Positions 1 to 17,773 of a DNA stretch of 64,000 nucleotides are shown here, in pieces. The notes beneath the pieces were generated by a model. The model saw only the letters and a program-made list of their open reading frames with translations. It had not been told where the DNA came from and searched no databases. The stretch covers positions 38,516 to 102,515 of the forward strand of contig JBAYVF010000004.1 in the NCBI GenBank assembly GCA_041674705.1, read 5' to 3'. Origin of the DNA: Candidatus Omnitrophota bacterium. Lineage in GTDB: Bacteria; Omnitrophota; Omnitrophia; Omnitrophales; Aquincolibacteriaceae. The stretch's first letter is position 1. Each line of letters opens with the position of its first letter. The translations under genes were made by a program, and so were the position numbers.

Positions 1-561
1 CAAGAGGCCATTATTGGAATTGTCTATGCGGTGGCAGCAGCCGGGGCCATTCTCATCTTGAGCCGGGCGGCAGAAGGTGATGAAGAGATCCGTCATATGA
101 TGGTCGGCAATATCCTTCTGGTGGATCTCCGCGAGATACTCACGATGGCTGTCCTTTACGGCATCGTGGGTTCATTCCACTGGTATTTCCGCAAGACGTT
201 TCTCCTGATCTCGACAAAATCCGAAGAGGCTTATCGGAAAGGGATAAAGGTCCGGTGGTGGGACATTCTTTTTTATCTGACATTCGGTCTCGTGGTAACG
301 AGTTCGGTGCATATTGCGGGCGTCCTGCTCGTTTTCTCGTTTCTGATCATCCCGGCGGTCGGAGCGATCCTTTTTTCGGATAAAATATCCGGCAGGCTTT
401 TTCTGGGGTGGGGTTTTGGGATCCTTGCGAGTCTTGCAGGGATCGGGCTTTCGTATTACTTTGATCTCCCAACCGGGGCAACGGTGGTATGTGTTTTCGG
501 CGGACTCTTGGTCCTTCTCGCGTTAATAAAAACTTTGTTTCTTGCTGGCCCGAAGCCCTAG
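1..561 (+). CDS. ABC-3 family metal (Zn/Mn-type) ABC transporter permease, C-terminal part; the 5' end lies upstream of the window
   Basis: Frame 1 is open from position 1 (QEAIIGIVYAVAAAGAILIL...). The product is hydrophobic and multi-TM, with a ZnuB/MntB-like sequence. Confidence 0.65.
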   Translation, partial: QEAIIGIVYAVAAAGAILILSRAAEGDEEIRHMMVGNILLVDLREILTMAVLYGIVGSFHWYFRKTFLLISTKSEEAYRKGIKVRWWDILFYLTFGLVVTSSVHIAGVLLVFSFLIIPAVGAILFSDKISGRLFLGWGFGILASLAGIGLSYYFDLPTGATVVCVFGGLLVLLALIKTLFLAGPKP

Positions 562-1265
562 AGGCTGACCGCTTGGCCTTCTCGCAAGGGGGTAAAGCCT
601 CTTTTGTAAGCTCTTCGGAATAAGAGGTGGGCGGTAGCGCCGGTGCAGTGGAGGGGGATGACCTTTCGGACGCCGAGGGCTTGAAGTTCTGCGATGATCT
701 TTAAATTGTCTTTTCGCGTATTGTCCTTCATGTGGAATCCACCGCAGATAGCGTAGATTTTCTTGCCGAATATTTTGATAGCTTGCCTCACGATCCGGAC
801 GATCCCTGGGTGGGCGCAGCCCGTGATGACTGAAAAGCCCTTTTGTGATTTCACGACCAAAGCCTGTTCATAAAGAATGCCGCGACCTGTTTCGGCGCGC
901 ATCTGTCCAAGCGAAAAGATGCCCCGGCTTATTTGGCAGGGCCTGCTGACTTCGATTAATGAGCCGTGGTTACTCCGGATCAGCCCTTTTAGAGTTTTGC
1001 CGGTCTCCTTGCAGATGTGAACTTGTGCTTTGGGATGGGTCTTGAGGAAATCACCAAGTCCCGCAATGTGGTCCCAGTCCTCATGCGAGATCACCACATG
1101 TTTGACTCGGGAGAGATCGATTTTGAGGCGTCTGACATTTGTCCGAAAGATGTCTTCCCGGCCGAAAGCATCAAAGAGAACATCTCCGACGAGAAAAGAA
1201 ATGCCCCAACGCATGGCTTTACGTTCTTTTTTTGTTGAGCCATCGGCAATAAGCCTGAGATTCAT
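558..1265 (-). CDS. MBL-fold metallo-hydrolase
   Basis: HxHxDH-type motif (SHEDWDHIAGL) and a C-terminal CGGFH segment. Its stop overlaps the upstream gene's start. Confidence 0.7.
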   Translation of the reverse strand: MNLRLIADGSTKKERKAMRWGISFLVGDVLFDAFGREDIFRTNVRRLKIDLSRVKHVVISHEDWDHIAGLGDFLKTHPKAQVHICKETGKTLKGLIRSNHGSLIEVSRPCQISRGIFSLGQMRAETGRGILYEQALVVKSQKGFSVITGCAHPGIVRIVRQAIKIFGKKIYAICGGFHMKDNTRKDNLKIIAELQALGVRKVIPLHCTGATAHLLFRRAYKRGFTPLREGQAVSL

Positions 1266-1606
1266 TTTCTCCCGACCACTTCAGCGGCTTTTTCGACGCA
1301 GCCAACGCATGGTAGCTTTTTCAAAGCTTTGATCTCGTGGCATTTCAGGGAGCCTGCTAAGGAATGAAGCTCTTTCAAACCATCTTGGGTTCGGTGGGGG
1401 AAATGATGATCCAAGAGGCATTTTGCTGCGTAAAAAGCCCCGCAATATCCTTCTGGAGCCATTCCTCCACCGCAGGCTGAGAGCAATACCGTGGTTTTTT
1501 CCTCAAGTGGAAGTTGTTCCCGGAATGTTTCTGCGACAGACTGTGCACAATTAAGTCTTCGGGGGCTCTTCTTTCCCAAAAAATAGGCTTTTGCTGTTTC
1601 TTTCAT
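1262..1606 (-). CDS. C_GCAxxG_C_C family putative redox-active protein
   Basis: Family signatures NCAQSV ... ACGGGM ... GYCGAFYAAKC. Translationally coupled to the MBL hydrolase (4-nt overlap). Confidence 0.65.
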   Translation of the reverse strand: MKETAKAYFLGKKSPRRLNCAQSVAETFREQLPLEEKTTVLLSACGGGMAPEGYCGAFYAAKCLLDHHFPHRTQDGLKELHSLAGSLKCHEIKALKKLPCVGCVEKAAEVVGRK

Positions 1607-1779
1607 GAGTTATTGAAGCTTTCTATGGTCTTGTTTTAATTTCTCGTGAGCATTGCAAAAAGGACAGAACTTTTCCATCCGTGCCATGGCCCGGGCGAAT
1701 TTAGAGTTCGGGAAACGCCTGGCTATGATGCACAGAGGGCATATTTCACACACAAATGCGAGTAGCCGGATCAACCCGT

Positions 1780-2292
1780 TCATTTTTTGTCCTTTCCCGC
1801 CATTTTATGCTGTTTGAGAAAATGTTCTGTGCATTCCATGAATTTGGCGGTTCCTTTTGCGATAACCCGCTTGCCTTGCAAGAGCTCGGACTCCAGGATA
1901 TGCCACGCCGAGATAGATTTTTTTATCCGTGCACGGACGGTTGCCGCTTGCTTCACGGCAAGAGGGGATAGAAACCGAACCGTTAATGCTCCCGTCACGG
2001 CTATTCTACCATGGGCAAATAGGCAGTTCATCATCGCTCCGTCGAGGATCGCCGCAATGACGCCGCCGTGCATCAACCCGGGATAGCCTTGCAAGAACTC
2101 GTCGCAAAAGAAGCGCGCTTTAACAGAGCCATCTTTGCAAGCATGAAACGGTAGTTTGAGCCCAAGGGGATGCTTTTTGCCGCAGATGATGCAATGGGCA
2201 TGGAAAAGCTTTTGGAAGGACCTAAATCGCTTCTTTGTTTCCGCCATAAGTCCGCATGTGCTTTCTGTCAGGGGTTTTTTTACGTTTAGCAT
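1780..2292 (-). CDS. Hotdog-fold (PaaI/4HBT-like) thioesterase with an N-terminal Cys/His-rich segment
   Basis: HGGVIAAILDGAMMNC hotdog signature. N-terminal HAHCIICGKKH...HAC. Overlaps the next gene by 7 nt. Confidence 0.65.
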   Translation of the reverse strand: MLNVKKPLTESTCGLMAETKKRFRSFQKLFHAHCIICGKKHPLGLKLPFHACKDGSVKARFFCDEFLQGYPGLMHGGVIAAILDGAMMNCLFAHGRIAVTGALTVRFLSPLAVKQAATVRARIKKSISAWHILESELLQGKRVIAKGTAKFMECTEHFLKQHKMAGKDKK

Positions 2293-3137
2293 CCGACAAC
2301 CTCCCAGATCTTGGTGATCTCATTTTTTAAAGGGCCATTCGTATATTCTGTGATGGGTTTTCCTGCGATTACGGATTCGATGACGGCTCGTGCGAAAGGT
2401 ATTTTCCCGATAACAGGGACCCTGCGAGATTCGCAATAACGCTCGATCTTCTCCGACGCTTCCGGATTAATGTCCCATTTATTGATGACAAGCTGTGTCT
2501 GCACGTTGAAGTGCTCAGCTAGATCGATCACGCGTTCGGCATCATGCAATCCGGAAAGGGTGGGTTCTGTCACGATCAAGGCGAGATCCACTCCCGAAAG
2601 GGAAGCGATGACCGGACACCCGATGCCCGGAGGTCCATCGATGATGATGTGTGTTGCCCCGTTCTTTTCCGCGATTTCCTTGGCTGCCTCACGGACCTTC
2701 GCGACAAGTTTCCCCGAGTTTTCCTCGGCGATGCCCAGTTTTGCATGCACGAAGGGTCCGTACCGTGTTTCGGAAATAAACCACTCACCGGCCGTATTTT
2801 CTTTCATGCGGATCGCGTTTACAGGGCACAGCCTGGCGCATAAGCCACATCCTTCGCAAGCAATCGGGCTCACGGCAAATTCGGAACTGATCGCTTGAAA
2901 ACGGCATGCGTCCGAACATTGTCCGCAGTGCGTGCAAAGGACCGGATCGATCTTGGCAAAAGCCCCGCTCTTGAAGATGTTCCGTTCTTTTATGGAAGGG
3001 TGCAGCAAGAGGTGGAGATTGGCGGCATCGACATCGCAGTCCACCATGACCTTGTTTTTTGCCAATGATGCAAAAGCTCCGGTGAGCATGGTTTTCCCCG
3101 TGCCGCCTTTCCCGCTGATGACGACGATCTGTTTCAT
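2286..3137 (-). CDS. MinD/ParA-superfamily P-loop ATPase with inserted 2x[4Fe-4S] ferredoxin domain (COG1149-type)
   Basis: Deviant Walker A GKGGTGKT plus two CxxCxxCxxxCP motifs (CTHCGQCSDAC, CEGCGLCARLCP). Confidence 0.8.
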   Translation of the reverse strand: MKQIVVISGKGGTGKTMLTGAFASLAKNKVMVDCDVDAANLHLLLHPSIKERNIFKSGAFAKIDPVLCTHCGQCSDACRFQAISSEFAVSPIACEGCGLCARLCPVNAIRMKENTAGEWFISETRYGPFVHAKLGIAEENSGKLVAKVREAAKEIAEKNGATHIIIDGPPGIGCPVIASLSGVDLALIVTEPTLSGLHDAERVIDLAEHFNVQTQLVINKWDINPEASEKIERYCESRRVPVIGKIPFARAVIESVIAGKPITEYTNGPLKNEITKIWEVVGC

Positions 3138-3976
3138 GCCACGACCTTGGTGCTGTCCAGGATGAAACGGAAAAGCTCTTGGAATTTTGTCCGATATTCG
3201 GGGAATTGCTCAATAAAAGGGATTCCCACCGAATAGAGCTCAGCGATCTTGCGGTCGAAGGGGATCTTGAGTAGTACCGGGATGTCGTGAGCCTTAAAAT
3301 AAAGACGAGTTCTCAAGTCGTCAGGTTCCGCTCGATTCATAACAACGCCGTAAGGGATGCCAAGTTTTTGAACGGTTTCGATGGCCAGTTGGAGATCATT
3401 CATCCCGAAGGGTGTGGGTTCCGTGACCAGAATGCAGAAATCACTATCCTTTACGGCTGTGACCATAGGACACGCAGTGCCTGGAGGCGCATCAATGATC
3501 GCTGTCAAAGACGGATCGATATGTGATTTGACCTGCCTGATCAGAGGAGGGGCCATTGTCTCGCCTACGGTAAGCTTTCCCTGAATGAAACGGATGTCAT
3601 TTCGCTGTCCGATTTCAATCTCACCGATTGGGCGGTCGATCTCCCGGATCGTTCCCTGGGGGCATAGGCGGGAGCAGGCTCCGCAGCCGTGGCACATTTG
3701 AGGAAAGAAAAGGACCTTTTTAGGAAGCAGCGCGAAGGCATGATAAGCGCAAACATCCCGGCAAGTGCCGCAAAAGTTACATTTCCCGTAATCGATCTCC
3801 GGAACCCGGACCGTAGCCGGTTTTCGATCGCATATATTAGCTTTGAGAAATATCTGAGCATTAGGTTCTTCGACATCGCAATCAAGGAGCTGGGCTTGTT
3901 CAAGGCAGAGCGCCAGATTTACTGCCACCGTTGTTTTTCCGGTTCCGCCTTTGCCGCTTGCTACCGAGATGATCAT
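3134..3976 (-). CDS. MinD/ParA-superfamily P-loop ATPase with inserted 2x[4Fe-4S] ferredoxin domain (second paralogue)
   Basis: SGKGGTGKTT Walker A. Cys clusters CNFCGTCRDVC and CHGCGACSRLCP. 4-nt overlap with the neighbouring gene. Confidence 0.8.
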   Translation of the reverse strand: MIISVASGKGGTGKTTVAVNLALCLEQAQLLDCDVEEPNAQIFLKANICDRKPATVRVPEIDYGKCNFCGTCRDVCAYHAFALLPKKVLFFPQMCHGCGACSRLCPQGTIREIDRPIGEIEIGQRNDIRFIQGKLTVGETMAPPLIRQVKSHIDPSLTAIIDAPPGTACPMVTAVKDSDFCILVTEPTPFGMNDLQLAIETVQKLGIPYGVVMNRAEPDDLRTRLYFKAHDIPVLLKIPFDRKIAELYSVGIPFIEQFPEYRTKFQELFRFILDSTKVVA

Positions 3977-4620
3977 TTGGCTTTTGTCGCGATGAGCGTC
4001 TGATGAAAGAGCGTCTTCGTTTTTTGGAGGCTGAAATTTTTTCTCCGGAGGTATGCCGCAGTTTCCGACATGGTGATCGTGCCTCTGCCGTGAACATTTC
4101 CTTCGAGGGCATGGATCTGGTCCATGGTCTTAAATCCCTTTTCCGTAAAATCGCTCAGAATCAGCTTCCCCTGCGGTTTAAGGACTCGGATAAGTTCATC
4201 CAGGACCTTATGAGGCTGTGTGAAGTGGTGGAGGGTATTGATAGAGAAGATCATGTCATAGCTACTGTCTTTGAAACTCAAATGTTCGCCGTTCTCGACG
4301 CGAAGGTCAGCGAATCCGTCCAGAAGTTGGAATTTTAGATAGCGTTTCGCGATATCTTTTTCTTCTTTGGAAATATCAAAGCTGGTGAAGGAAAGTCCGC
4401 ATTTTGCAAGTGCGCTCGCGAAATGACCCTTTCCCGTGCCTGCTTCGAGTATCTTGCCGCGCAGGGGAGAGGCCTGTTCGAGAATCACTTCCCGCTCCCG
4501 GTCGAGATCGTAGCCGAATTTCAAAAACAATTTCTTGCGTTCAAATATCCGGGTTAATTCAGGAGGAAGTCCGGCGGGGATTTTGCTTTTCTTGGAGACT
4601 CGTATCGGATCAGTTTTCAT
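3973..4620 (-). CDS. Class I SAM-dependent methyltransferase (start corrected from the 265-aa ORF call)
   Basis: Motif I LEAGTGKGHFASALA and post-I VLKPQGKLILSD. The ORF-track N-terminal 50 aa overlaps a real ferredoxin gene in another frame. Start moved to ATG at 4620 (MKTDPIRV...). Confidence 0.7.
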   Translation of the reverse strand: MKTDPIRVSKKSKIPAGLPPELTRIFERKKLFLKFGYDLDREREVILEQASPLRGKILEAGTGKGHFASALAKCGLSFTSFDISKEEKDIAKRYLKFQLLDGFADLRVENGEHLSFKDSSYDMIFSINTLHHFTQPHKVLDELIRVLKPQGKLILSDFTEKGFKTMDQIHALEGNVHGRGTITMSETAAYLRRKNFSLQKTKTLFHQTLIATKAK

Positions 4621-4783
4621 TGGGAGTGATCGCTTGGGTTGGGCAGGAGGGAATGCAGCTCCCGCATTCGACGCATTGTTCGTTCGCCACAGCTTTGCCT
4701 CCCACGAGTCGGACTCCGTCCACAGGGCAAATTCCGATGCAAGCGCAGCAACCGTTACATTTTGAGGCATCTATTTTGACCAT
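4610..4783 (-). CDS. 2x[4Fe-4S] ferredoxin, 57 aa (not in ORF track)
   Basis: Minus-strand translation gives MVKIDASKCNGCCACIGICPVDGVRLVGGKAVANEQCVECGSCIPSCPTQAITPNEN*. It has two CxxCxxCxxxCP motifs. Its stop overlaps the methyltransferase start. Confidence 0.7.
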   Translation of the reverse strand: MVKIDASKCNGCCACIGICPVDGVRLVGGKAVANEQCVECGSCIPSCPTQAITPNEN

Positions 4784-4848
4784 GAAAATTTCTCCATCGT
4801 TTTATGTTTATAGAACAGCCTCCTAGGCTGTTTTTAGATTGTGATTTT

Positions 4849-5184
4849 TCAAAGAGGGTGAAAAAGGGTAATAGCTTCCGTGACCTTGCCGGTGATCCCG
4901 GTATGGATTTTTATCCCGGCAGGGTTCAGGACCTGGGCGGCATTCGGGCCGACGCTACCGGTCAAGACCGCCTCAACACCTTTTGAGACCATCAATTGTG
5001 CGGATTGGACGCCAGCACCCCCTGAGTTCTGGCCATTCGGATTTCCGAGGATCTCTTGCTCACCCGAAACCGTATCAACGATCCAGAAATACCGGCACCG
5101 GCCAAAGCGGGGATCGACCGCCGCTTCCGGATCATTTCCTTGAGCTGTAATACAGAGACGCATAGATTTCCTTTCGATTAGCAC
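4849..5184 (-). CDS. NifX/NifB-C-terminal-like (dinitrogenase FeMo-cofactor biosynthesis domain) protein
   Basis: About 110 aa with the RFGRCRYFWIVD motif typical of the NifB/NifX/NafY-type domain. Confidence 0.7.
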   Translation of the reverse strand: MLIERKSMRLCITAQGNDPEAAVDPRFGRCRYFWIVDTVSGEQEILGNPNGQNSGGAGVQSAQLMVSKGVEAVLTGSVGPNAAQVLNPAGIKIHTGITGKVTEAITLFHPL

Positions 5185-5254
5185 CGTTTCTCATTTGATT
5201 TTAAAGGAAAACGGTACAGCCTTGCGAATCCATAAAATCAATTGGAGCGCAGTG

Positions 5255-5620
5255 CTAGTGGCAACCACCCTCGTGCCCTTGGCAACCCGCCAGTCCGCCG
5301 AGCTTATTTTTAATGAGGTCTTCGACCGCGGCTCTGACATTTCCCGAGTAACCGAACACCTGAATCCCGGCGTGCACAAATTTTTCCTGAGCGCCCATAC
5401 CCATGCCGCCGGCGATCACGTGCGTTATACCATGCTTCATCATTTCGCCAACGGCCTGGCAGCCGCCCCCGCCGTGTTGGGCGGTGTTCTGAGCTACTTT
5501 AGCTTCCTTAACTTTATCTCCGTCTATTTCGACGATGCAAAAATATTTACACTGCCCGAAATGTGCGGATACATCGCTGTCGAGTCCCCGGTCGTCATTG
5601 GTGGTAATCCCTATTTTCAT
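5255..5620 (-). CDS. NifX/NifB-C-terminal-like domain protein with Gly/Cys/His-rich C-terminal tail
   Basis: HFGQCKYFCIVEID motif. The C-terminus GGLAGCQGHEGGCH suggests metal or cluster binding. Confidence 0.7.
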   Translation of the reverse strand: MKIGITTNDDRGLDSDVSAHFGQCKYFCIVEIDGDKVKEAKVAQNTAQHGGGGCQAVGEMMKHGITHVIAGGMGMGAQEKFVHAGIQVFGYSGNVRAAVEDLIKNKLGGLAGCQGHEGGCH

Positions 5621-5650
5621 TTGATACTCCCTTTAGTTTGATGTTGGATA

Positions 5651-5681
5651 GGGGACAGGCCGCTCATTCTTGCCTGTCCCC
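5651..5681 (-). promoter_or_regulatory. Intercistronic stem-loop (10-bp stem GGGGACAGGC/GCCTGTCCCC) between DUF5320 and NifX-like genes
   Basis: Perfect inverted repeat seen in the sequence. No U-run follows it on the minus strand, so it looks like a stability or processing element rather than a terminator. Confidence 0.35.
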
Positions 5682-5687
5682 TAAGTG

Positions 5688-5939
5688 TTATTTCGCTTTA
5701 CTCTGTTCCAGCTCGTTCAGTTTTGAACGGACGGCTTCCAATTCGCTGGAAAGGTATGCTGCACGCTCTTTCAGGGTCTCGGTTCCTTCGGTCCCGCTAA
5801 CTTTTGGCTGACCTGAATCAGCCCGTTGCCTGCCGGTGAGTCCCGTGGCATAAAACTGATTTCGCCAACCGCGTCCTCGACCCATCGTCATTCCCATTCT
5901 CCTGGGTCCTGTTCCATCTCCTCCTGGCATGATATTCAC
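5688..5939 (-). CDS. DUF5320-family small protein
   Basis: N-terminal GDGTGPRRMGMTMGRGRG plus C-terminal coiled coil. Sits beside DUF134 as is typical for this family. Confidence 0.6.
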   Translation of the reverse strand: MNIMPGGDGTGPRRMGMTMGRGRGWRNQFYATGLTGRQRADSGQPKVSGTEGTETLKERAAYLSSELEAVRSKLNELEQSKAK

Positions 5940-5948
5940 CTCCTTTGG

Positions 5949-6332
5949 TTAAATTGTGTCATTTGTTCCAAAATTGCCCCGGCGGCATCTTCCGCGCCCT
6001 TGCCCAAAACCGCCCTTGAGTGGAGGTTCCGGTTGTTCCGGTATCTGAATATTGATGCCACCGGCGATTTTGAGTGCTTTACCATTCACAATAGCATCTG
6101 CGATCTTCTTGTGGGCTGCAGCAATGGTATTGCCGAAGGTTTGCCGCGAAATATTCATTTTTTTTGCTGCGTCTTCCTGATAAAGGCCTTCCAGATCCGC
6201 GAGGCGGATCGCTTCAAACTCATCAAGTGTCAAACCAACCTCCTGAAGGACAGAGAGAGGAATGCCTCTTGGCTTGAAATAATCCACTCCGGGTGTTCCG
6301 AAAACGCGCCTGCATTTAAACGGTCTTGGCAT
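5949..6332 (-). CDS. DUF134/UPF0251 putative DNA-binding protein (first gene of operon)
   Basis: Conserved KCRRV...FKPRGIP...LTLDEFEAIRLADLEGL sequence, which is sigma-70 region-4-like. Confidence 0.7.
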   Translation of the reverse strand: MPRPFKCRRVFGTPGVDYFKPRGIPLSVLQEVGLTLDEFEAIRLADLEGLYQEDAAKKMNISRQTFGNTIAAAHKKIADAIVNGKALKIAGGINIQIPEQPEPPLKGGFGQGRGRCRRGNFGTNDTI

Positions 6333-6425
6333 GGGGTCCTCCGAATGTTATTAGCATATGCCAATAATAGCCCTCAAGAGACTACTTGTCAAGGATTCGA
6401 AGGAACTTTGCTGAATGGAGGGAAG

Positions 6426-6466
6426 GTAAAATCCCAACGGGCCCGATGTTAGGCGGACCCGTTGGG
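6426..6466 (-). terminator. Rho-independent terminator of the peroxiredoxin gene
   Basis: CCCAACGGG...CCCGTTGGG stem followed by a short U-run on the minus strand. Confidence 0.45.
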
Positions 6467-6480
6467 CAGGGAAAACTGTT

Positions 6481-7260
6481 TTATTGCTTACTCGAACCTT
6501 TTTCGACTTCCTCTTTGGGGAGCTTTTTAAAACACATGAACCAGTCCTTACAGGTCACATCTCCTTTTCCTGATTGTTCCATGCGTTCTTTAGCGGTCCC
6601 GCAAGAACCGGCGGGAGGTACGATCACATCCTGACCTGGCTGCCAGTTGGCAGGGGTAGCGACCTTAAAGGCATCGGCGGTCTGCATGGCGATCAAGAGA
6701 CGCTTGATCTCGTCAAAGTTGCGGCCGTTGGAGAGCGGATAGTAAAGCATCGCGCGAACTTTGCCCACGGGATCGATAAAAAATACCGCACGCACTGCTT
6801 TGGTATCGCTTGCGGTCGGCTGAAGCATCCCGTACTTTTTCGCCACTTCCATCTTGAGATCTTCGATCAGCGGGAAAGTTACTTCCACATTCTTCATCCC
6901 GTTGAACTCGATTTTTTCTTTGATCGTCCTGAGCCACGCGATATGGCTGTAGGTGCTATCGATCGAAAGACCGACCAGCTGTGTGTTGAGCTTCTCGAAC
7001 TCAGGCATCATGGTCGCAAACGTCATGAACTCGGTTGTGCAGACGGGAGTAAAATCCGCAGGGTGGCTGAAGAGAATGATCCATTTCCCCTTATAATCGC
7101 CCGGGAAATTGATCGGGCCTTGGGTGGTCTGGGCCGTAAACGCCGGAGCATCATCCCCGATCAGAGGCAAATGCTTGGCTGCGACTTCCTCAGCAAAACC
7201 TAAAGGAAGGGTGACAGTTATTAAGGCAAAAGCCAGTAACAGCGAAAACGTTTTTTTCAT
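6481..7260 (-). CDS. Secreted 1-Cys/Prx6-type peroxiredoxin (AhpC/TSA family)
   Basis: Signal peptide MKKTFSLLLAFALITVTLPLGFA. Peroxidatic motif FTPVCTTE. Confidence 0.8.
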   Translation of the reverse strand: MKKTFSLLLAFALITVTLPLGFAEEVAAKHLPLIGDDAPAFTAQTTQGPINFPGDYKGKWIILFSHPADFTPVCTTEFMTFATMMPEFEKLNTQLVGLSIDSTYSHIAWLRTIKEKIEFNGMKNVEVTFPLIEDLKMEVAKKYGMLQPTASDTKAVRAVFFIDPVGKVRAMLYYPLSNGRNFDEIKRLLIAMQTADAFKVATPANWQPGQDVIVPPAGSCGTAKERMEQSGKGDVTCKDWFMCFKKLPKEEVEKGSSKQ

Positions 7261-7418
7261 GGTGGCTCCTCGAATTTGTTGGGGGCTTTAGGAATTCCCT
7301 TCGATGGGTTCAATATAGGTCCGAAAAGCTGGCGAAGCAAGAGCCGATTTATTTTGGGGTTTTTCCGTAAAAAAGCTTTTTGGAAGGTGAAAAAGCGATA
7401 AGATATACAATATTCCTT

Positions 7419-8807
7419 ATGAAAAAAGCTATCTTGTTTCTCTCGATATTGAGCTTGATCTCGGGCCATTTGGTTTGCGCCGAAGAAATGCCGGCGCAAA
7501 ACGCAGAGCTTGAGAAACGCACATTCCTTGATTGTTACCAGAAAGTTCTCACCCATTATCCCGCGCTCAGGAAACGGTATGAACAATTGGAACAGGCCAA
7601 GGCGGAACGAAATCTTGCCATCGCGGATCTTTTTCCCAAAGTGCGCGGCATTTTCGAAATGGAGACCTCCGATGACCCGGTGTTCGTGTTCGGCAGTCTG
7701 CTCCGGCAGAAATCTTTTACCGACCAGAACTTCGAGCTTAATTCACTCAACACACCCCGTCACCGGACGAATTATCATTTCGGGATCGAAGGGGACATCC
7801 TTCTTTTCGATTCATTCAATACGATCTCGAAGATCCGCTCCGCCCGCCGGCTTGTGAAATCCGCGGATCTCGAGACGGATTTTACCGAAATGGAAGCCGC
7901 GATCATCACGCTTGAAAGTTATTTGGGGATCCTTCTCGCGCGGGAGCTCTATAACGTTGCGGTCGAGGTAAAGGAAGCCTCGGACAAGGATCTTCAGCAG
8001 GCCAAAGACCTGAACGACAAGGGGATGATCTTGGGCGCGGACTATTACGCGGCCAAGGTGACGGCGGCAGGGATCGAGCGTGAAGTGAACCGACTAAAGG
8101 GCCTTCTTAAAACTTCTCGCATGTTGATGAATATTCTGATGGGGGAAGACCCGGAGCTTGTCTGGGATGCGGCTGGTCAATTTCCGGATGCCGCTCAAGA
8201 TCAAGGGGCACTTCAATCCTGGCTCGCTCAGGCGTATCAAAAAAGGCTGGACCTTGCGGCGATGGATCAGCTGCTTGATGCGCAACGGATCGAATCGCTG
8301 CGCCAGAAAACTTCCTTTCTCCCAAAATTTTACGGGTTCGGCAGTTTGGATGAAGACACCAACAATTGGCATACCGGCGGGCAGAACTTTTCAGTAGGCG
8401 TGAAAGGTTCGATGGATTTTTTTGATCCGAGTTATCCGGGACGCGTAAAAGGATCCGGCGCCAGATACAAGGAGCTTAAGGCCGAACGCGACGCGCTTCG
8501 CGATGAGATCGCCAAGGGACTTATCCAGGAGCTCACGCGTTACGAAACCGTGACCGCGGATGCGCCGATCATGAAGTTGGCCTACGCCGACGCAAAACAG
8601 GCCTCCGAACTTACGGCGAAACTTTATCAGGAAGGCCGAAAATCGATCGCGGATCTTCTGGAGATGCGCCGCGGCTATTTTGAAACGGCCGCCGGGTTCC
8701 AGAGCCTTCTCTTGGCGCTTGAACTCGAATATGCAAAACTTTTATTCCTCTCCGGACAGCTTACCGAAAACGGTATCCACGAAATGAACACGCGGCTCAA
8801 AGGTTAG
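7419..8807 (+). CDS. TolC-family outer membrane efflux protein
   Basis: Signal peptide from MKKAILFLSILSL, so the start is moved from 7380. Coiled-coil/beta repeats typical of outer membrane efflux proteins. Confidence 0.75.
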   Translation: MKKAILFLSILSLISGHLVCAEEMPAQNAELEKRTFLDCYQKVLTHYPALRKRYEQLEQAKAERNLAIADLFPKVRGIFEMETSDDPVFVFGSLLRQKSFTDQNFELNSLNTPRHRTNYHFGIEGDILLFDSFNTISKIRSARRLVKSADLETDFTEMEAAIITLESYLGILLARELYNVAVEVKEASDKDLQQAKDLNDKGMILGADYYAAKVTAAGIEREVNRLKGLLKTSRMLMNILMGEDPELVWDAAGQFPDAAQDQGALQSWLAQAYQKRLDLAAMDQLLDAQRIESLRQKTSFLPKFYGFGSLDEDTNNWHTGGQNFSVGVKGSMDFFDPSYPGRVKGSGARYKELKAERDALRDEIAKGLIQELTRYETVTADAPIMKLAYADAKQASELTAKLYQEGRKSIADLLEMRRGYFETAAGFQSLLLALELEYAKLLFLSGQLTENGIHEMNTRLKG

Positions 8808-16325: not shown

Positions 16326-17773
16326 ATTATGAGCCCGTGATAGGTTTGGAAGTGCATGTTCAATTGAAGACAAGATCAAAGTTGTTTTGTTCTTGTTCCA
16401 CCACTTTTGGCGAGGAAGGTAATAAGAATACATGCCCCGTGTGTCTCGGCTGGCCGGGGTCATTGCCGGTACTGAACGAAGCGGCGCTGAAACTCGGGAT
16501 TCGGGTGGGGCTTGCGCTTAATTGCAAGATCGCCGAGCGGCTCAAGTTCGACCGGAAGAATTATTTTTATCCGGATCTTCCCAAAGCCTACCAGATCTCG
16601 CAATTCGATATGCCGGTGAACGGCCGCGGCGAACTTCTCATCGAAACAAAAGATGCGGAAGGAAAAATGATCGAGCGAAAGATCGGGATTACTCGTGCGC
16701 ACCTGGAAGAAGATGCCGGGAAGCTTCTGCATGAAGGCATCGCGGACGGCAGTCTCGTGGACTACAACCGCGGCGGTATCCCGCTTCTTGAGATCGTCTC
16801 CGAACCGGATCTCGGAAGCCCGCAAGAGGCGCATGACTATCTCACCGCGCTCAAGGCCATCCTTCAATATGTGGAAGTGAGCGACTGCGATATGGAAAAG
16901 GGGAGCCTTCGCTGCGACGCGAACGTGTCGGTGCGGCCCGTGAGCCAGGAAAAACTCGGGACCAAGGTCGAGATCAAGAACCTGAACTCGTTCAAGATGG
17001 TGGCGCGAGCGATCCAGTACGAGATCGAACGGCAGACGGAAGCGCTTGAACGCGGGGAGGCGATCGTCCAGGAAACGCGACTTTGGAGTGACGCCGAGGG
17101 CATGACGGTTTCCATGCGTTCCAAAGAAGATGCCCACGACTACCGTTATTTTCCCGAGCCCGACCTTGTGCCTTTCACCTTGTCGCGCGAAGTCGTAGAG
17201 GCGATCCGGAAGACTTTGCCGGAATTGCCGCTTGAGCGCGCGAAGCGGTTCATCAAAGAATTCGGCATTCCGGAATATGATGCCTATGTGCTGGTGCAGG
17301 AGAAAAAACTGGCCAACTATTTTGAATCCTGCATTCGCGAAGGCGCCGCGCCGAAGCTCGCGAGCAATTGGATCCAAAATGAACTCTTGGCGCTGCTGAA
17401 TGTGAAAAACATCGCGATCGATGAGTGCCTGGTTTCGCCCCACGCGCTTGCCGGACTGATCCGGCTGGTCGAAAAAGGGATCGTAAGCGGGAAAACCGCT
17501 AAAGATGTTTTTCAGGAAATGGCGGCGACCGGTAAAACGGCGGACGTAATCGTTAAAGAAAAAGGCCTCACGCAGGTTTCGGATACCGGGCTCATTGAAA
17601 AAGCCGTTGAAAAAGCGATCGCCGCGAATCCCACGGCCGTCGCGGAATTCAAGGCCGGCAAACAAAAAGCCCTCGGCGCGCTGGTGGGTGCCGTTATGAA
17701 AGAAACCGGCGGCAAGGCGAATCCGAAAGTGGTTAATGAAATTCTCATTAACAAGCTGGGGACTCGTAGCTAG
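16322..17773 (+). CDS. gatB: Asp-tRNA(Asn)/Glu-tRNA(Gln) amidotransferase subunit B
   Basis: 483 aa, canonical GatB. Its last codons (GTRS*) are supplied by the REP-like element. Confidence 0.95.

Follow-up and report, generated by a model that had tools for sequence, protein, structure and literature searches.

An expanded variant of the ORP gene cluster in a Candidatus Omnitrophota bacterium: a DUF134-headed operon with a possible role in the holding and release of iron-sulfide species

The subject of this analysis is an operon at one end of a 64,000-nucleotide stretch of DNA (referred to below as the window) from contig JBAYVF010000004.1, positions 38,516 to 102,515, which belongs to a metagenome assembly (GCA_041674705.1) of a Candidatus Omnitrophota bacterium. 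The open reading frame list of the window and Pfam searches indicate twelve co-directional open reading frames on the minus strand between positions 558 and 6332. Their core, which comprises two paralogous MinD/Mrp-like ATPases with inserted ferredoxin domains and NifX-like carriers, is the gene cluster known from Desulfovibrio as that for the orange protein (ORP) complex, and the whole operon is an expanded variant of that cluster rather than its copy. Concerning function, we see about an even chance that the operon serves an ATP- and electron-driven process in which iron-sulfide species are held on, and released from, the NifX-like carriers.

Organization of the operon

The features of the operon and of its control region, in the order of transcription and in coordinates of the window, are as follows:

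6433-6466, minus strand: intrinsic terminator of the upstream peroxiredoxin gene (stem of 13 bp, 10 of them GC pairs, with a T-run behind it)
6364-6392, minus strand: sigma-70-type promoter, TTGACA-17-TATTAT (11/12 consensus matches)
6348-6367, no strand: 20-bp palindromic operator, a putative DUF134 site, TTATTGGCATATGCTAATAA, overlapping the -10 box
5949-6332, minus strand: DUF134/UPF0251 helix-turn-helix protein, a predicted autoregulator (Pfam DUF134, 83 bits; 83.3 against a threshold of 27)
5688-5930, minus strand: DUF5320 protein, short variant (Pfam DUF5320, 28.4 bits)
5649-5683, minus strand: GC-rich hairpin lacking a U-tract (perfect stem of 12 bp, -24.4 kcal/mol, z = -4.2)
5255-5620, minus strand: NifX-like carrier A, NifXa (Nitro_FeMo-Co, 73 bits)
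4849-5163, minus strand: NifX-like carrier B, NifXb, of orange-protein/IssA type (Nitro_FeMo-Co, 80 bits)
4610-4783, minus strand: small 2x[4Fe-4S] ferredoxin of 57 aa (Fer4, E 2e-11)
3973-4620, minus strand: class-I S-adenosylmethionine (SAM)-dependent methyltransferase of 215 aa (Methyltransf_11, 77.5 bits)
3134-3976, minus strand: MinD/Mrp-like P-loop ATPase 1 with a 2x[4Fe-4S] insert (CbiA/ParA and two Fer4 matches)
2286-3137, minus strand: MinD/Mrp-like ATPase 2 with a 2x[4Fe-4S] insert (CbiA/ParA and two Fer4 matches)
1780-2292, minus strand: hotdog-fold 4HBT/PaaI-like protein (4HBT, 33 bits)
1610-1783, minus strand: 57-aa five-Cys protein, cys57, missed earlier (CxxCPxC...CP[FA]C, no Pfam family)
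1262-1606, minus strand: C_GCAxxG_C_C putative redox-active Cys-rich protein (Pfam, 45.5 bits)
558-1265, minus strand: metallo-beta-lactamase (MBL)-fold protein with a variant metal motif (Lactamase_B, 33.5 bits)

The Pfam domain calls lie above the gathering scores of their families, and NCBIfam equivalog cut-offs were applied in addition. The operon is one transcription unit, since it has a single promoter and operator and its distal junctions are tightly coupled. Gaps of 18, 67, 91 and 65 nt separate the first five genes, while the remaining junctions are of -11, -4, -4, -7, -4, +3 and -4 nt, the first of these being the overlap of the methyltransferase start with the ferredoxin stop. The terminator of the peroxiredoxin gene marks the upstream limit of the operon, and at its other end the stop codon of the MBL gene overlaps that of a convergent ABC-3 permease gene (558-561). 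The initial annotation of this stretch had described an operon of eleven genes, all overlapping by 1-11 nt and transcribed together. The co-directional string and the single transcript stand, and all eleven domain assignments were recovered by hidden Markov model searches above the gathering scores; the Gly/Arg-rich N-terminus of the DUF5320 protein and the Cys/His tail of NifXa are likewise present. The number of genes had to be raised to twelve, as the conserved five-Cys open reading frame had been overlooked, and the overlaps apply to the distal half of the operon and not to its first five genes.

The hairpin sits between the DUF134/DUF5320 pair and the structural genes. A matching stem with compensatory changes is present at the equivalent loci L002 (7972-8004) and L006 (7391-7416) of related genomes, and the element may act as an attenuator or in mRNA processing or stability. 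A scan of window positions 1-7600 against Rfam yielded no credible riboswitch or other known RNA.

Relation of the core to the Desulfovibrio ORP cluster

The ATPase homologues that are nearest by sequence carry the name Candidatus Omnitrophota. A genome scan with the ATPase alignment, from which 80 loci were retained, reached many anaerobic phyla of both Bacteria and Archaea, and the counts given below refer to 87 loci. The wide conservation among anaerobes that the initial annotation had ascribed to the core is thus borne out, but the core is not an unassigned cluster, as had been stated there: it is the ORP cluster of Desulfovibrio (PMC6345978, PMC8359166), and NifXb matches 2wfb, the solved orange protein from D. 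gigas, at E 4.8e-16 over residues 2-94. The Desulfovibrio complex includes Orp3 and Orp4, which are MinD-like ATPases with two [4Fe-4S] motifs each, the orange protein Orp8, which is a Nitro_FeMo-Co domain, the small Cys-rich [2Fe-2S] protein Orp5, and Orp9, also called MrpORP, in which Mrp/NBP35 is joined to a Di-Nase domain (PMC6345978, PMC8359166). Orp3, Orp4 and Orp8 co-purify and acquire Fe-S clusters from MrpORP (PMC6345978). Matched by descriptions, the orp3-orp4-orp5/orpR/orp7-orp8-orp9 region of D. vulgaris Hildenborough and the operon of the window have in common adjacent paralogous ATPases with ferredoxin motifs, a single-domain Nitro_FeMo-Co homologue of the orange protein, the restriction to anaerobes and, possibly, a small Cys-rich partner, for which cys57 is a candidate as the counterpart of Orp5.

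The operon of the window is a variant of this cluster and not a copy, because it lacks an Mrp/NBP35 ATPase and is equipped with a sigma-70 promoter and DUF134 rather than with sigma-54 and OrpR. No third ATPase that could correspond to MrpORP/Orp9, and no further NifX-like open reading frame, was found in the 64-kb window, and the NCBIfam MrpORP model gave only partial matches of 30-50 bits (cut-off 450). Many related loci add an Mrp/NBP35 ATPase, and some show the full ORP layout, with DUF134, NifX-like and Mrp-type ATPase genes, one of them (L059) with a true Mrp+NifX fusion. While the Desulfovibrio genes form two divergent operons controlled by sigma-54, OrpR and IHF, those of the window form one operon, headed by a sigma-70 promoter close to the consensus and by a DUF134 operator; an OrpR-like activator is encoded in 5/87 related loci only. 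The ORP cluster also lacks the DUF5320, ferredoxin, methyltransferase, hotdog, C_GCAxxG_C_C and variant MBL genes, and its host is a sulfate reducer, whereas that of the window is an Omnitrophota bacterium. Among the conserved gene sets of anaerobes that still lack a demonstrated function, the COG1149/ORP cluster is one of the most widespread.

Ferredoxin-bearing MinD/Mrp-like ATPases

The two ATPases are 30-32% identical to each other and follow in the order ATPase 1, ATPase 2 in 71 of 75 adjacent pairs. The eight Cys residues of the insert are 100% conserved in both paralogues (about 80 homologues each), C33 and C169 of ATPase 1 are 99% conserved over 82 sequences, and the same degree of conservation concerns the switch-II Cys174 of ATPase 2. 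The pair probably forms a heterodimer equivalent to that of Orp3 and Orp4.

The AlphaFold model of ATPase 1 (pLDDT 90) and sequence comparisons indicate that the ATPases of the window are MinD/Mrp-like in predicted fold and not NifH-like. The 50 best Foldseek neighbours of the model in PDB are archaeal MinD, FlhG/FleN, ParA/Soj, Cfd1, ApbC and Mrp-type HypB, and none of them is NifH. By sequence, the closest solved relative of the ATPase core is archaeal MinD (E ~3e-10), and the PDB search returned no full-length solved homologue carrying the ferredoxin insert. The likeness to NifH and CfbC-type cluster carriers that had been proposed in the initial annotation holds at the level of the P-loop class, to which the presence of Fe-S clusters and of the residues CD at the start of switch I can be added, but it goes no further. 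The Fer4_NifH score of 20.1 bits is below the 25-bit threshold and covers the N-terminus only. In NifH, BchL and CfbC the cluster is held at the dimer interface by two Cys per subunit, whereas in the ATPases of the window the clusters are placed in the inserted ferredoxin domain. Equivalence to NifH was rejected, as hhalign aligned no more than the first 45 residues, which span the P-loop and switch I, to a NifH sequence, and as Foldseek placed no NifH in its top 50; that Cys169 might correspond to NifH Cys132 is a lead and not a result. With Mrp, NBP35, ApbC-Cfd1 and Mrp-type HypB, the ATPases of the window have in common the SIMIBI-class P-loop dimer fold, the deviant Walker A and, presumably, the general role of a nucleotide-dependent metal-cluster carrier. 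However, those proteins use a CxxC bridging motif, while the ATPases of the window have the 2x[4Fe-4S] ferredoxin insert and a single invariant switch-II Cys. The ApbC score is 28.7 bits against a cut-off of 348, and, unlike the third ATPases of related loci, the window ATPases contain no CPxC motif.

The closeness to MinD brings into consideration a spatial or cell-division function, with the Fe-S inserts serving as a redox switch. In fold as well as in PDB sequence, nothing is closer to the ATPases than archaeal MinD and FlhG/FleN, the deviant Walker A has its signature lysine, residues 260-279 of the model form a long C-terminal helix, and a role of this kind was proposed in the literature together with the polar localisation of MrpORP (PMC6345978). 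Nevertheless, we consider such a function very improbable. The scores with the MinD equivalog TIGR01968 are 35-65 bits and thus far below its cut-off of 212.9, no minC, minE or division genes are present among the recurrent neighbours, and the ATPases are always paired with metal-cluster carriers and often with IscU-type scaffolds and Fur.

NifX-like carriers and the DUF5320 protein

The two NifX-like carriers represent separate subtypes. NifXa contains the motif HFGxC and ends with the tail GCQGHEGGCH, and its closest solved structure is PH0822 (2yx6); such Cys/His tails are present in 31 of the 128 carrier-family members that adjoin the ATPase pair. NifXb, the start of which was set at ATG 5163, as in the public gene call, contains the motif DPRFGRCxYF and has no tail. 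Its best solved relative is MTH1175 (E 8e-19), a protein assigned to the IssA clade by the authors who described IssA (PMC5524996). Neither carrier is an equivalog of NifX (TIGR02663), as NifXa scores 17.4 bits against the cut-off of 112 and NifXb gives no match.

The DUF5320 gene starts at ATG 5930, which is preceded by the ribosome-binding site AGGAGG. Its product consists of a cationic N-terminal segment rich in Gly, Arg and aromatic residues (pI of 11.9, 11 Gly and 7 Arg within the first 40 residues) and of a C-terminal coiled coil. The family alignment contains a conserved N-terminus, GRGWGRGFGRG-type repeats and a coiled coil. According to a custom profile, DUF5320 is present in some form in 52/87 loci and is fused to the C-terminus of a NifXb-type domain in 13 related loci; the stand-alone and fused counts overlap in 11 loci owing to crude open reading frame calling and are approximate. 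In four of the proteins tested, both parts of the Nitro_FeMo-Co+DUF5320 fusion were above the Pfam threshold. The best 120 of more than 7,600 DUF5320 matches in the protein database were all stand-alone proteins named 'DUF5320 domain-containing', with no fusion among them.

IssA, which binds and stores anionic thioferrate and can restore [4Fe-4S] ferredoxin, is built of an IPR003731 domain and a cationic tail in which Gly, Arg and aromatic residues abound (PMC5524996). Because DUF5320 is fused to a NifX-like carrier in related loci, the system of the window may be read as the IssA architecture in separate pieces, with the tails likened by description, and DUF5320 as a detachable tail of a carrier of the IssA/orange-protein type. 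Common to the IssA of P. furiosus, its uncharacterised 'IssX' relatives and the window are the IPR003731/Nitro_FeMo-Co domain and a cationic, disordered Gly/Arg/aromatic segment, and IssA resembles the window system also in its association with iron and sulfide supply. The differences are that the cationic tail of IssA is part of the carrier polypeptide, while in the window DUF5320 is a separate protein with a coiled coil, its fusion to the carrier being confined to other genomes; that no ATPase partners have been reported for IssA, while the carriers of the window adjoin the ATPase pair; and that thioferrate binding and nanoparticle formation by IssA are known from the protein, while the window system is known from genes alone.

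Promoter, operator and DUF134

The promoter arrangement of the window is preserved in L002 and L006, the spacers of which have diverged, and the palindrome occupies the equivalent place in relatives whose spacer and flanks differ. The window contains one copy of the palindrome, with 0 expected by chance, and a search of the whole 64 kb revealed no second copy that could point to a local regulon or client, not even when 3 mismatches were allowed or the pattern was made degenerate. By means of an exact 18-mer, at least 120 loci (L088-L207) were identified in metagenome contigs. In 77 of the 120 listed, a DUF134 open reading frame starts about 17 nt downstream of the 18-mer, and in many of the others the site is near a contig end. 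Metagenomes of widely differing kinds, with human gut contigs among them, carry the palindrome in the form TATTGGCATATGCYAATA directly upstream of DUF134 genes. The 73 unique DUF134 upstream regions, 44 of which have a perfect TTGACA at a distance of 17±1 nt, have nothing in common but the -35 box, the -10 box and the palindrome. A relaxed form, TTATGrrCATATGyyCATAA, precedes DUF134 genes of Zixibacteria, Dehalococcoidia, Ignavibacteria and Desulfobacterales. A sigma-54 promoter was considered and dismissed, as the GG/GC spacing of the palindrome, inspected by eye only, does not fit the -24/-12 pattern.

Since the palindrome over the -10 box precedes DUF134 genes in so many metagenome loci, DUF134 may be predicted, by the position of its gene and site, to be an autoregulating, repressor-type protein acting at the palindrome. 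The palindrome, newly defined here, is a candidate operator for the whole DUF134 family. The DUF134 protein of the window has a helix-turn-helix domain similar to Sigma70_r4_2, a Cys in the N-terminal KCR motif, and a Gly/Arg tail with one Cys. In a set of 95 homologues Cys7 is kept in 71%, and a C-terminal Cys is frequent. In other loci DUF134 is fused to Nitro_FeMo-Co or to a zinc ribbon with a Gly/Arg tail. An autoregulated operon, a palindrome over the -10 box and a regulator with a conserved Cys are features that the window has in common with the feedback control by IscR and Fur. DUF134 differs in being an unrelated, uncharacterised helix-turn-helix family with no solved structure, the ligand and DNA binding of which are predicted. 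The literature searched contains nothing relevant on DUF134, DUF5320, UPF0251, COG1342, COG1237, 7dck or TM1679.

Two further observations concern DUF134. Fusions of DUF134 with a Cys-rich linker, Nitro_FeMo-Co and a Cys/His tail are encoded right behind the palindrome in four loci: L088 (3845-4582), which is a human-gut metagenome contig, L168, L187 and L189 (4113-4874). A second, divergent DUF134 gene, with the variant palindrome TTATGCACATATGTGCATAA upstream, is present in L006 (2098-4660), where it heads an operon of ArsP_1 permease, thioredoxin, DsbD_2 and SBF (Acr3-like) genes; DUF134 paralogues may thus control other metal or redox transport modules.

Gene neighbourhoods and expression of related systems

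NifX-like genes accompany the ATPase pair in 69/87 loci of Bacteria and Archaea. The partners most often found in the same-strand run, among the 87 loci, are DUF5320 (28), NifU_N of the IscU type (20), FmdB-type zinc ribbons (16), MBL (15) and DUF134 (13), followed by radical SAM and methyltransferase genes (9 each) and by ARMT1/DUF89 and DUF364/DUF4213 (7 each). Within the whole fetched loci, which extend up to 10 kb on each side, NifU_N is present in 33, a Fur-family gene in 10 and FeoB in 6. In close Omnitrophota relatives and in L211, Fur replaces DUF134 as the first gene. In the close relatives, a variable slot downstream of the ATPase pair is occupied by ferritin, EncFtn, NifU_N, Zip, DsrE, CoA_binding_2 or DUF2099 genes. 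The general idea of a metallocluster-handling machine, put forward in the initial annotation, fits the presence of NifU_N, Fur, Feo and ferritin genes in these neighbourhoods. Its division of the operon into a core and seven added genes needs to be redrawn, because the DUF5320, second NifX-like and MBL genes, counted among the added ones, recur widely with the core. It was right that no target enzyme is encoded locally; the neighbourhood profile over the 87 loci disclosed no recurrent client enzyme and pointed instead to iron and Fe-S genes.

This outcome bears on the possibility, in line with the initial annotation, that the operon is a dedicated maturation line for one complex metallocofactor, the client enzyme of which is encoded elsewhere, with the ATPases acting as insertases of the NifH/CfbC or CooC/HypB kind and the NifX-like proteins as shuttles. 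NifX, NafY and NifB move nitrogenase cofactor precursors on the same carrier domain (PMC5524996). The fold neighbours of the ATPase include Mrp-type HypB and Cfd1/ApbC, radical SAM genes are part of the operon in 9/87 loci, and the methyltransferase, hotdog and MBL proteins could modify an organic ligand. We regard this explanation as unlikely. Besides the lack of a recurrent client in the 87 loci and the general character of the Fe-S and iron genes that do recur (NifU_N, Fur, Feo), control is exerted by Fur or by a regulator to which the carrier domain itself is fused, the system is distributed among organisms with very different enzyme repertoires, and the NifX equivalog score of 17 is far from the cut-off of 112.

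Independent data on expression come from an archaeon and from Desulfovibrio. In Methanococcus voltae grown on pyrite, the IssA-like proteins Mvol_0689 and Mvol_0693 were up 2.3-fold and 4.3-fold, and Mvol_0691 and Mvol_0692, encoded between the IssA-like genes, were up 5.0-fold and 2.6-fold (PMC8516115, supplement). The latter two are annotated as 'cobyrinic acid a,c-diamide synthase' and have Fe-S motifs (PMC8516115, supplement); judging by this annotation, they are apparently the same ATPase pair. In PMC8516115 they are listed merely as proteins with Fe-S motifs and are not linked to the IssA-like genes. In Desulfovibrio, expression of the orp operons is limited to a very low redox potential (about -425 mV) and ceases under gas sparging (PMC8359166). 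Sparging also strips sulfide, to which the shut-off of orp may be tied.

The metal in question might also be other than iron, namely molybdenum or tungsten, with or without copper, if the operon handled or detoxified thiomolybdate or thiotungstate in sulfidic water, as modelled by the [S2MoS2CuS2MoS2]3- cluster of the orange protein. NifXb is a close relative of 2wfb, the orange protein holds its Mo-Cu-S cluster non-covalently (PMC6345978), and any metal sulfide that is anionic would be a ligand for cationic tails. Metal_resist (heavy-metal-resistance) and sulfur-transport genes are present in some DUF134-headed operons, and an RND/TolC efflux system is encoded upstream in the window. Still, thiometallate handling seems to us quite improbable, given that the neighbourhoods are dominated by iron and Fe-S genes, that genes for the transport of Mo, W or Cu or for their cofactors do not recur in them (among the families for which queries were searched), and that the proteomic response of M. 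voltae was to an iron-sulfide source.

Proposed holding and release of iron-sulfide species

According to the explanation that we prefer, with about as much doubt as confidence, the NifX-like carriers and the cationic DUF5320 protein would bind anionic iron-sulfide species non-covalently, either as cluster fragments or as thioferrate-like chains, by analogy to the chemistry of IssA and of the orange protein. The ATPase pair would use ATP hydrolysis and low-potential electrons, delivered via the ferredoxin and the inserts, to load the iron-sulfide or to release it reductively, and the released material would be handed to scaffolds or carriers such as IscU/NifU or Mrp. DUF134 would repress its own operon through the 20-bp palindrome over the -10 box and might sense the same iron-sulfide pool, by its conserved Cys or through a NifX-like partner, thereby tuning expression.

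Several points weigh against this explanation. The operon of the window itself contains no NifU_N, Mrp, Fur, Feo or ferritin genes, and to our knowledge no biochemical function has been demonstrated for any COG1149-type ATPase. The DUF5320 protein of the window is a short variant devoid of the conserved Cys segment of the family, the likeness of DUF5320 to the IssA tail is one of description and not of sequence comparison, and the predicted binding of DUF134 to the palindrome is deduced from position. The model leaves the five accessory genes unexplained. In addition, the native ligand of the orange protein is the Mo-Cu-S cluster and not an Fe-S one, and the authors of the Desulfovibrio studies, who observed MrpORP at the cell pole, propose a role of ORP in cell division (PMC6345978).

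A more far-reaching claim, which is rather unlikely to hold in full, is that the DUF134, DUF5320, NifX-like and ATPase-pair genes represent a self-regulated route for the storage and mobilisation of iron sulfide, beside ISC, SUF and NIF, that is widespread in anaerobic Bacteria and Archaea. In such a route, carrier domains with detachable IssA-like cationic tails would hold anionic polymers or clusters of Fe-S, an ATPase heterodimer would use ATP and electrons from ferredoxin to release them to acceptors of the IscU/Mrp type, and DUF134 would be a new family of repressors sensing Fe-S or metal sulfide. If true, a self-regulated iron-sulfide storage route would give the ORP complex its long-missing function, in an area, the storage and trafficking of iron and sulfide in anaerobes, that is poorly understood. 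Irrespective of this, a list of domains of unknown function is turned into testable parts: an operator with a candidate sensor-regulator, the link of DUF5320 to carriers by fusion, a five-Cys partner, and a variant MBL protein that may bind iron. The proteomics of M. voltae is of value here as independent work in which apparent archaeal equivalents respond to an iron-sulfide source, and Desulfovibrio and Methanococcus offer genetics for direct tests of the parts.

Ferredoxin and accessory genes

The small ferredoxin, which is probably the electron donor of the system, is kept in the same slot in L006, L007 and L019. It is omitted from the public gene call, in which the methyltransferase is extended by 50 residues (3973-4770) over the ferredoxin gene in another frame, and the same annotation artefact probably hides small ferredoxins in other genomes. 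The methyltransferase reaches the cut-off of no NCBIfam equivalog, and its gene directly follows that of DUF134 in 17/77 operator-bearing loci. Assignment as an ArsM-type methyltransferase was ruled out by the single Cys and by only weak scores with the ArsM family.

The hotdog protein, for which 2247 is an alternative start, has an N-terminal HCxxCG motif. Its nearest solved relatives are THEM4/5 and PA5202, and it recurs in L006, L067, L077, L211 and DUF134-headed operons. The cys57 protein has no match in Pfam or NCBIfam. A library of 1.84 billion proteins contains 104 representative clusters of its homologues at E<=1e-3, 17 of which are at <=1e-10. In these proteins P16, C18, C40, P41 and C43 are invariant, and C12 and C15 are conserved in at least 90%. 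Behind the ferredoxin-bearing ATPase pair, the cys57 gene frequently comes next or stands last; it follows the pair in L208 (1848-2051), is the last gene (3972-4142) of a Fur-DUF5320-4HBT-NifX-ATPase-ATPase-NifX operon in L211, and is present in L006 at 17013-17189, where gene callers missed it as they did on the source contig. This linkage is not universal, as one homologue is encoded near fatty-acid synthesis genes. The C_GCAxxG_C_C gene accompanies the core elsewhere only in L087, and there too MBL and methyltransferase genes follow.

In the MBL protein the motif H-E-D-W-D-H replaces HxHxDH, and H-[ED]-D-W-D-H is kept in 11 loci, while more distant homologues retain HxHxDH. The relatives of known structure, 7dck, TM1679 and 2p4z, are uncharacterised, and matches to ODP and flavorubredoxin are weak. 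A carboxylate at the second motif position (H-x-E-x-D-H) is typical of di-iron MBL folds, namely of flavodiiron and ODP proteins. The variant motif suggests a carboxylate-bridged, possibly di-iron site rather than the di-zinc site of a hydrolase. The name 'hydrolase' is therefore not established, since the motif fits di-iron MBL folds and is accompanied by the ODP and flavorubredoxin matches.

The methyltransferase, hotdog, cys57, C_GCAxxG_C_C and MBL genes appear to constitute a second accessory module, recurring under DUF134 control without the ATPases. It is conceivable that these distal genes are unrelated to the ORP core and were joined to it in this lineage as a DUF134-regulated module, possibly for the detoxification of sulfide, persulfide or another small molecule, in which case the twelve genes would not be one machine. 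This would account for the compact operator-borne operons without ATPases, which are of the types DUF134-MTase-NifX, DUF134-MTase-NifX-hotdog-MBL and DUF134-hotdog-cys57-MBL (MTase being the methyltransferase), for the DsrE and Sulf_transp genes that such operons contain, and for the high variability of the slot downstream of the ATPase pair in close relatives (CoA_binding_2, NifU_N, DUF2099, Zip). The idea deserves to be kept in mind, although we are inclined to doubt it, for a NifX-like carrier is still encoded in 44/77 compact operator-bearing operons, and the methyltransferase, MBL, hotdog and cys57 genes are found directly beside the ATPase pair in unrelated phyla as well. Moreover, the 4-nt overlaps in the window imply co-translation of distal genes with the ATPases.

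Genes flanking the operon

Downstream, the operon meets convergent genes of a ZnuB-like ABC-3 permease and a ZnuA-like binding protein, which end at its last stop codon (window 31-561, plus strand; L001 6690-9769). The 4-nt overlap of the convergent MBL and permease stops leaves no room for a terminator. The gene directly upstream of the operon (window 6481-7260, minus strand) codes for a 1-Cys peroxiredoxin that seems to have a signal peptide at its N-terminus. A peroxiredoxin gene is in the same place in the 84%-related genome (L006, 5739-6530), where a Zip transporter gene precedes it. In three 77%-related Omnitrophota genomes (L002, L003 and L004, 1-6536), a type I-C CRISPR-Cas set (Cas3, Cas5d, Csd1, Cas7 and Cas4) is located directly upstream of the equivalent operon.

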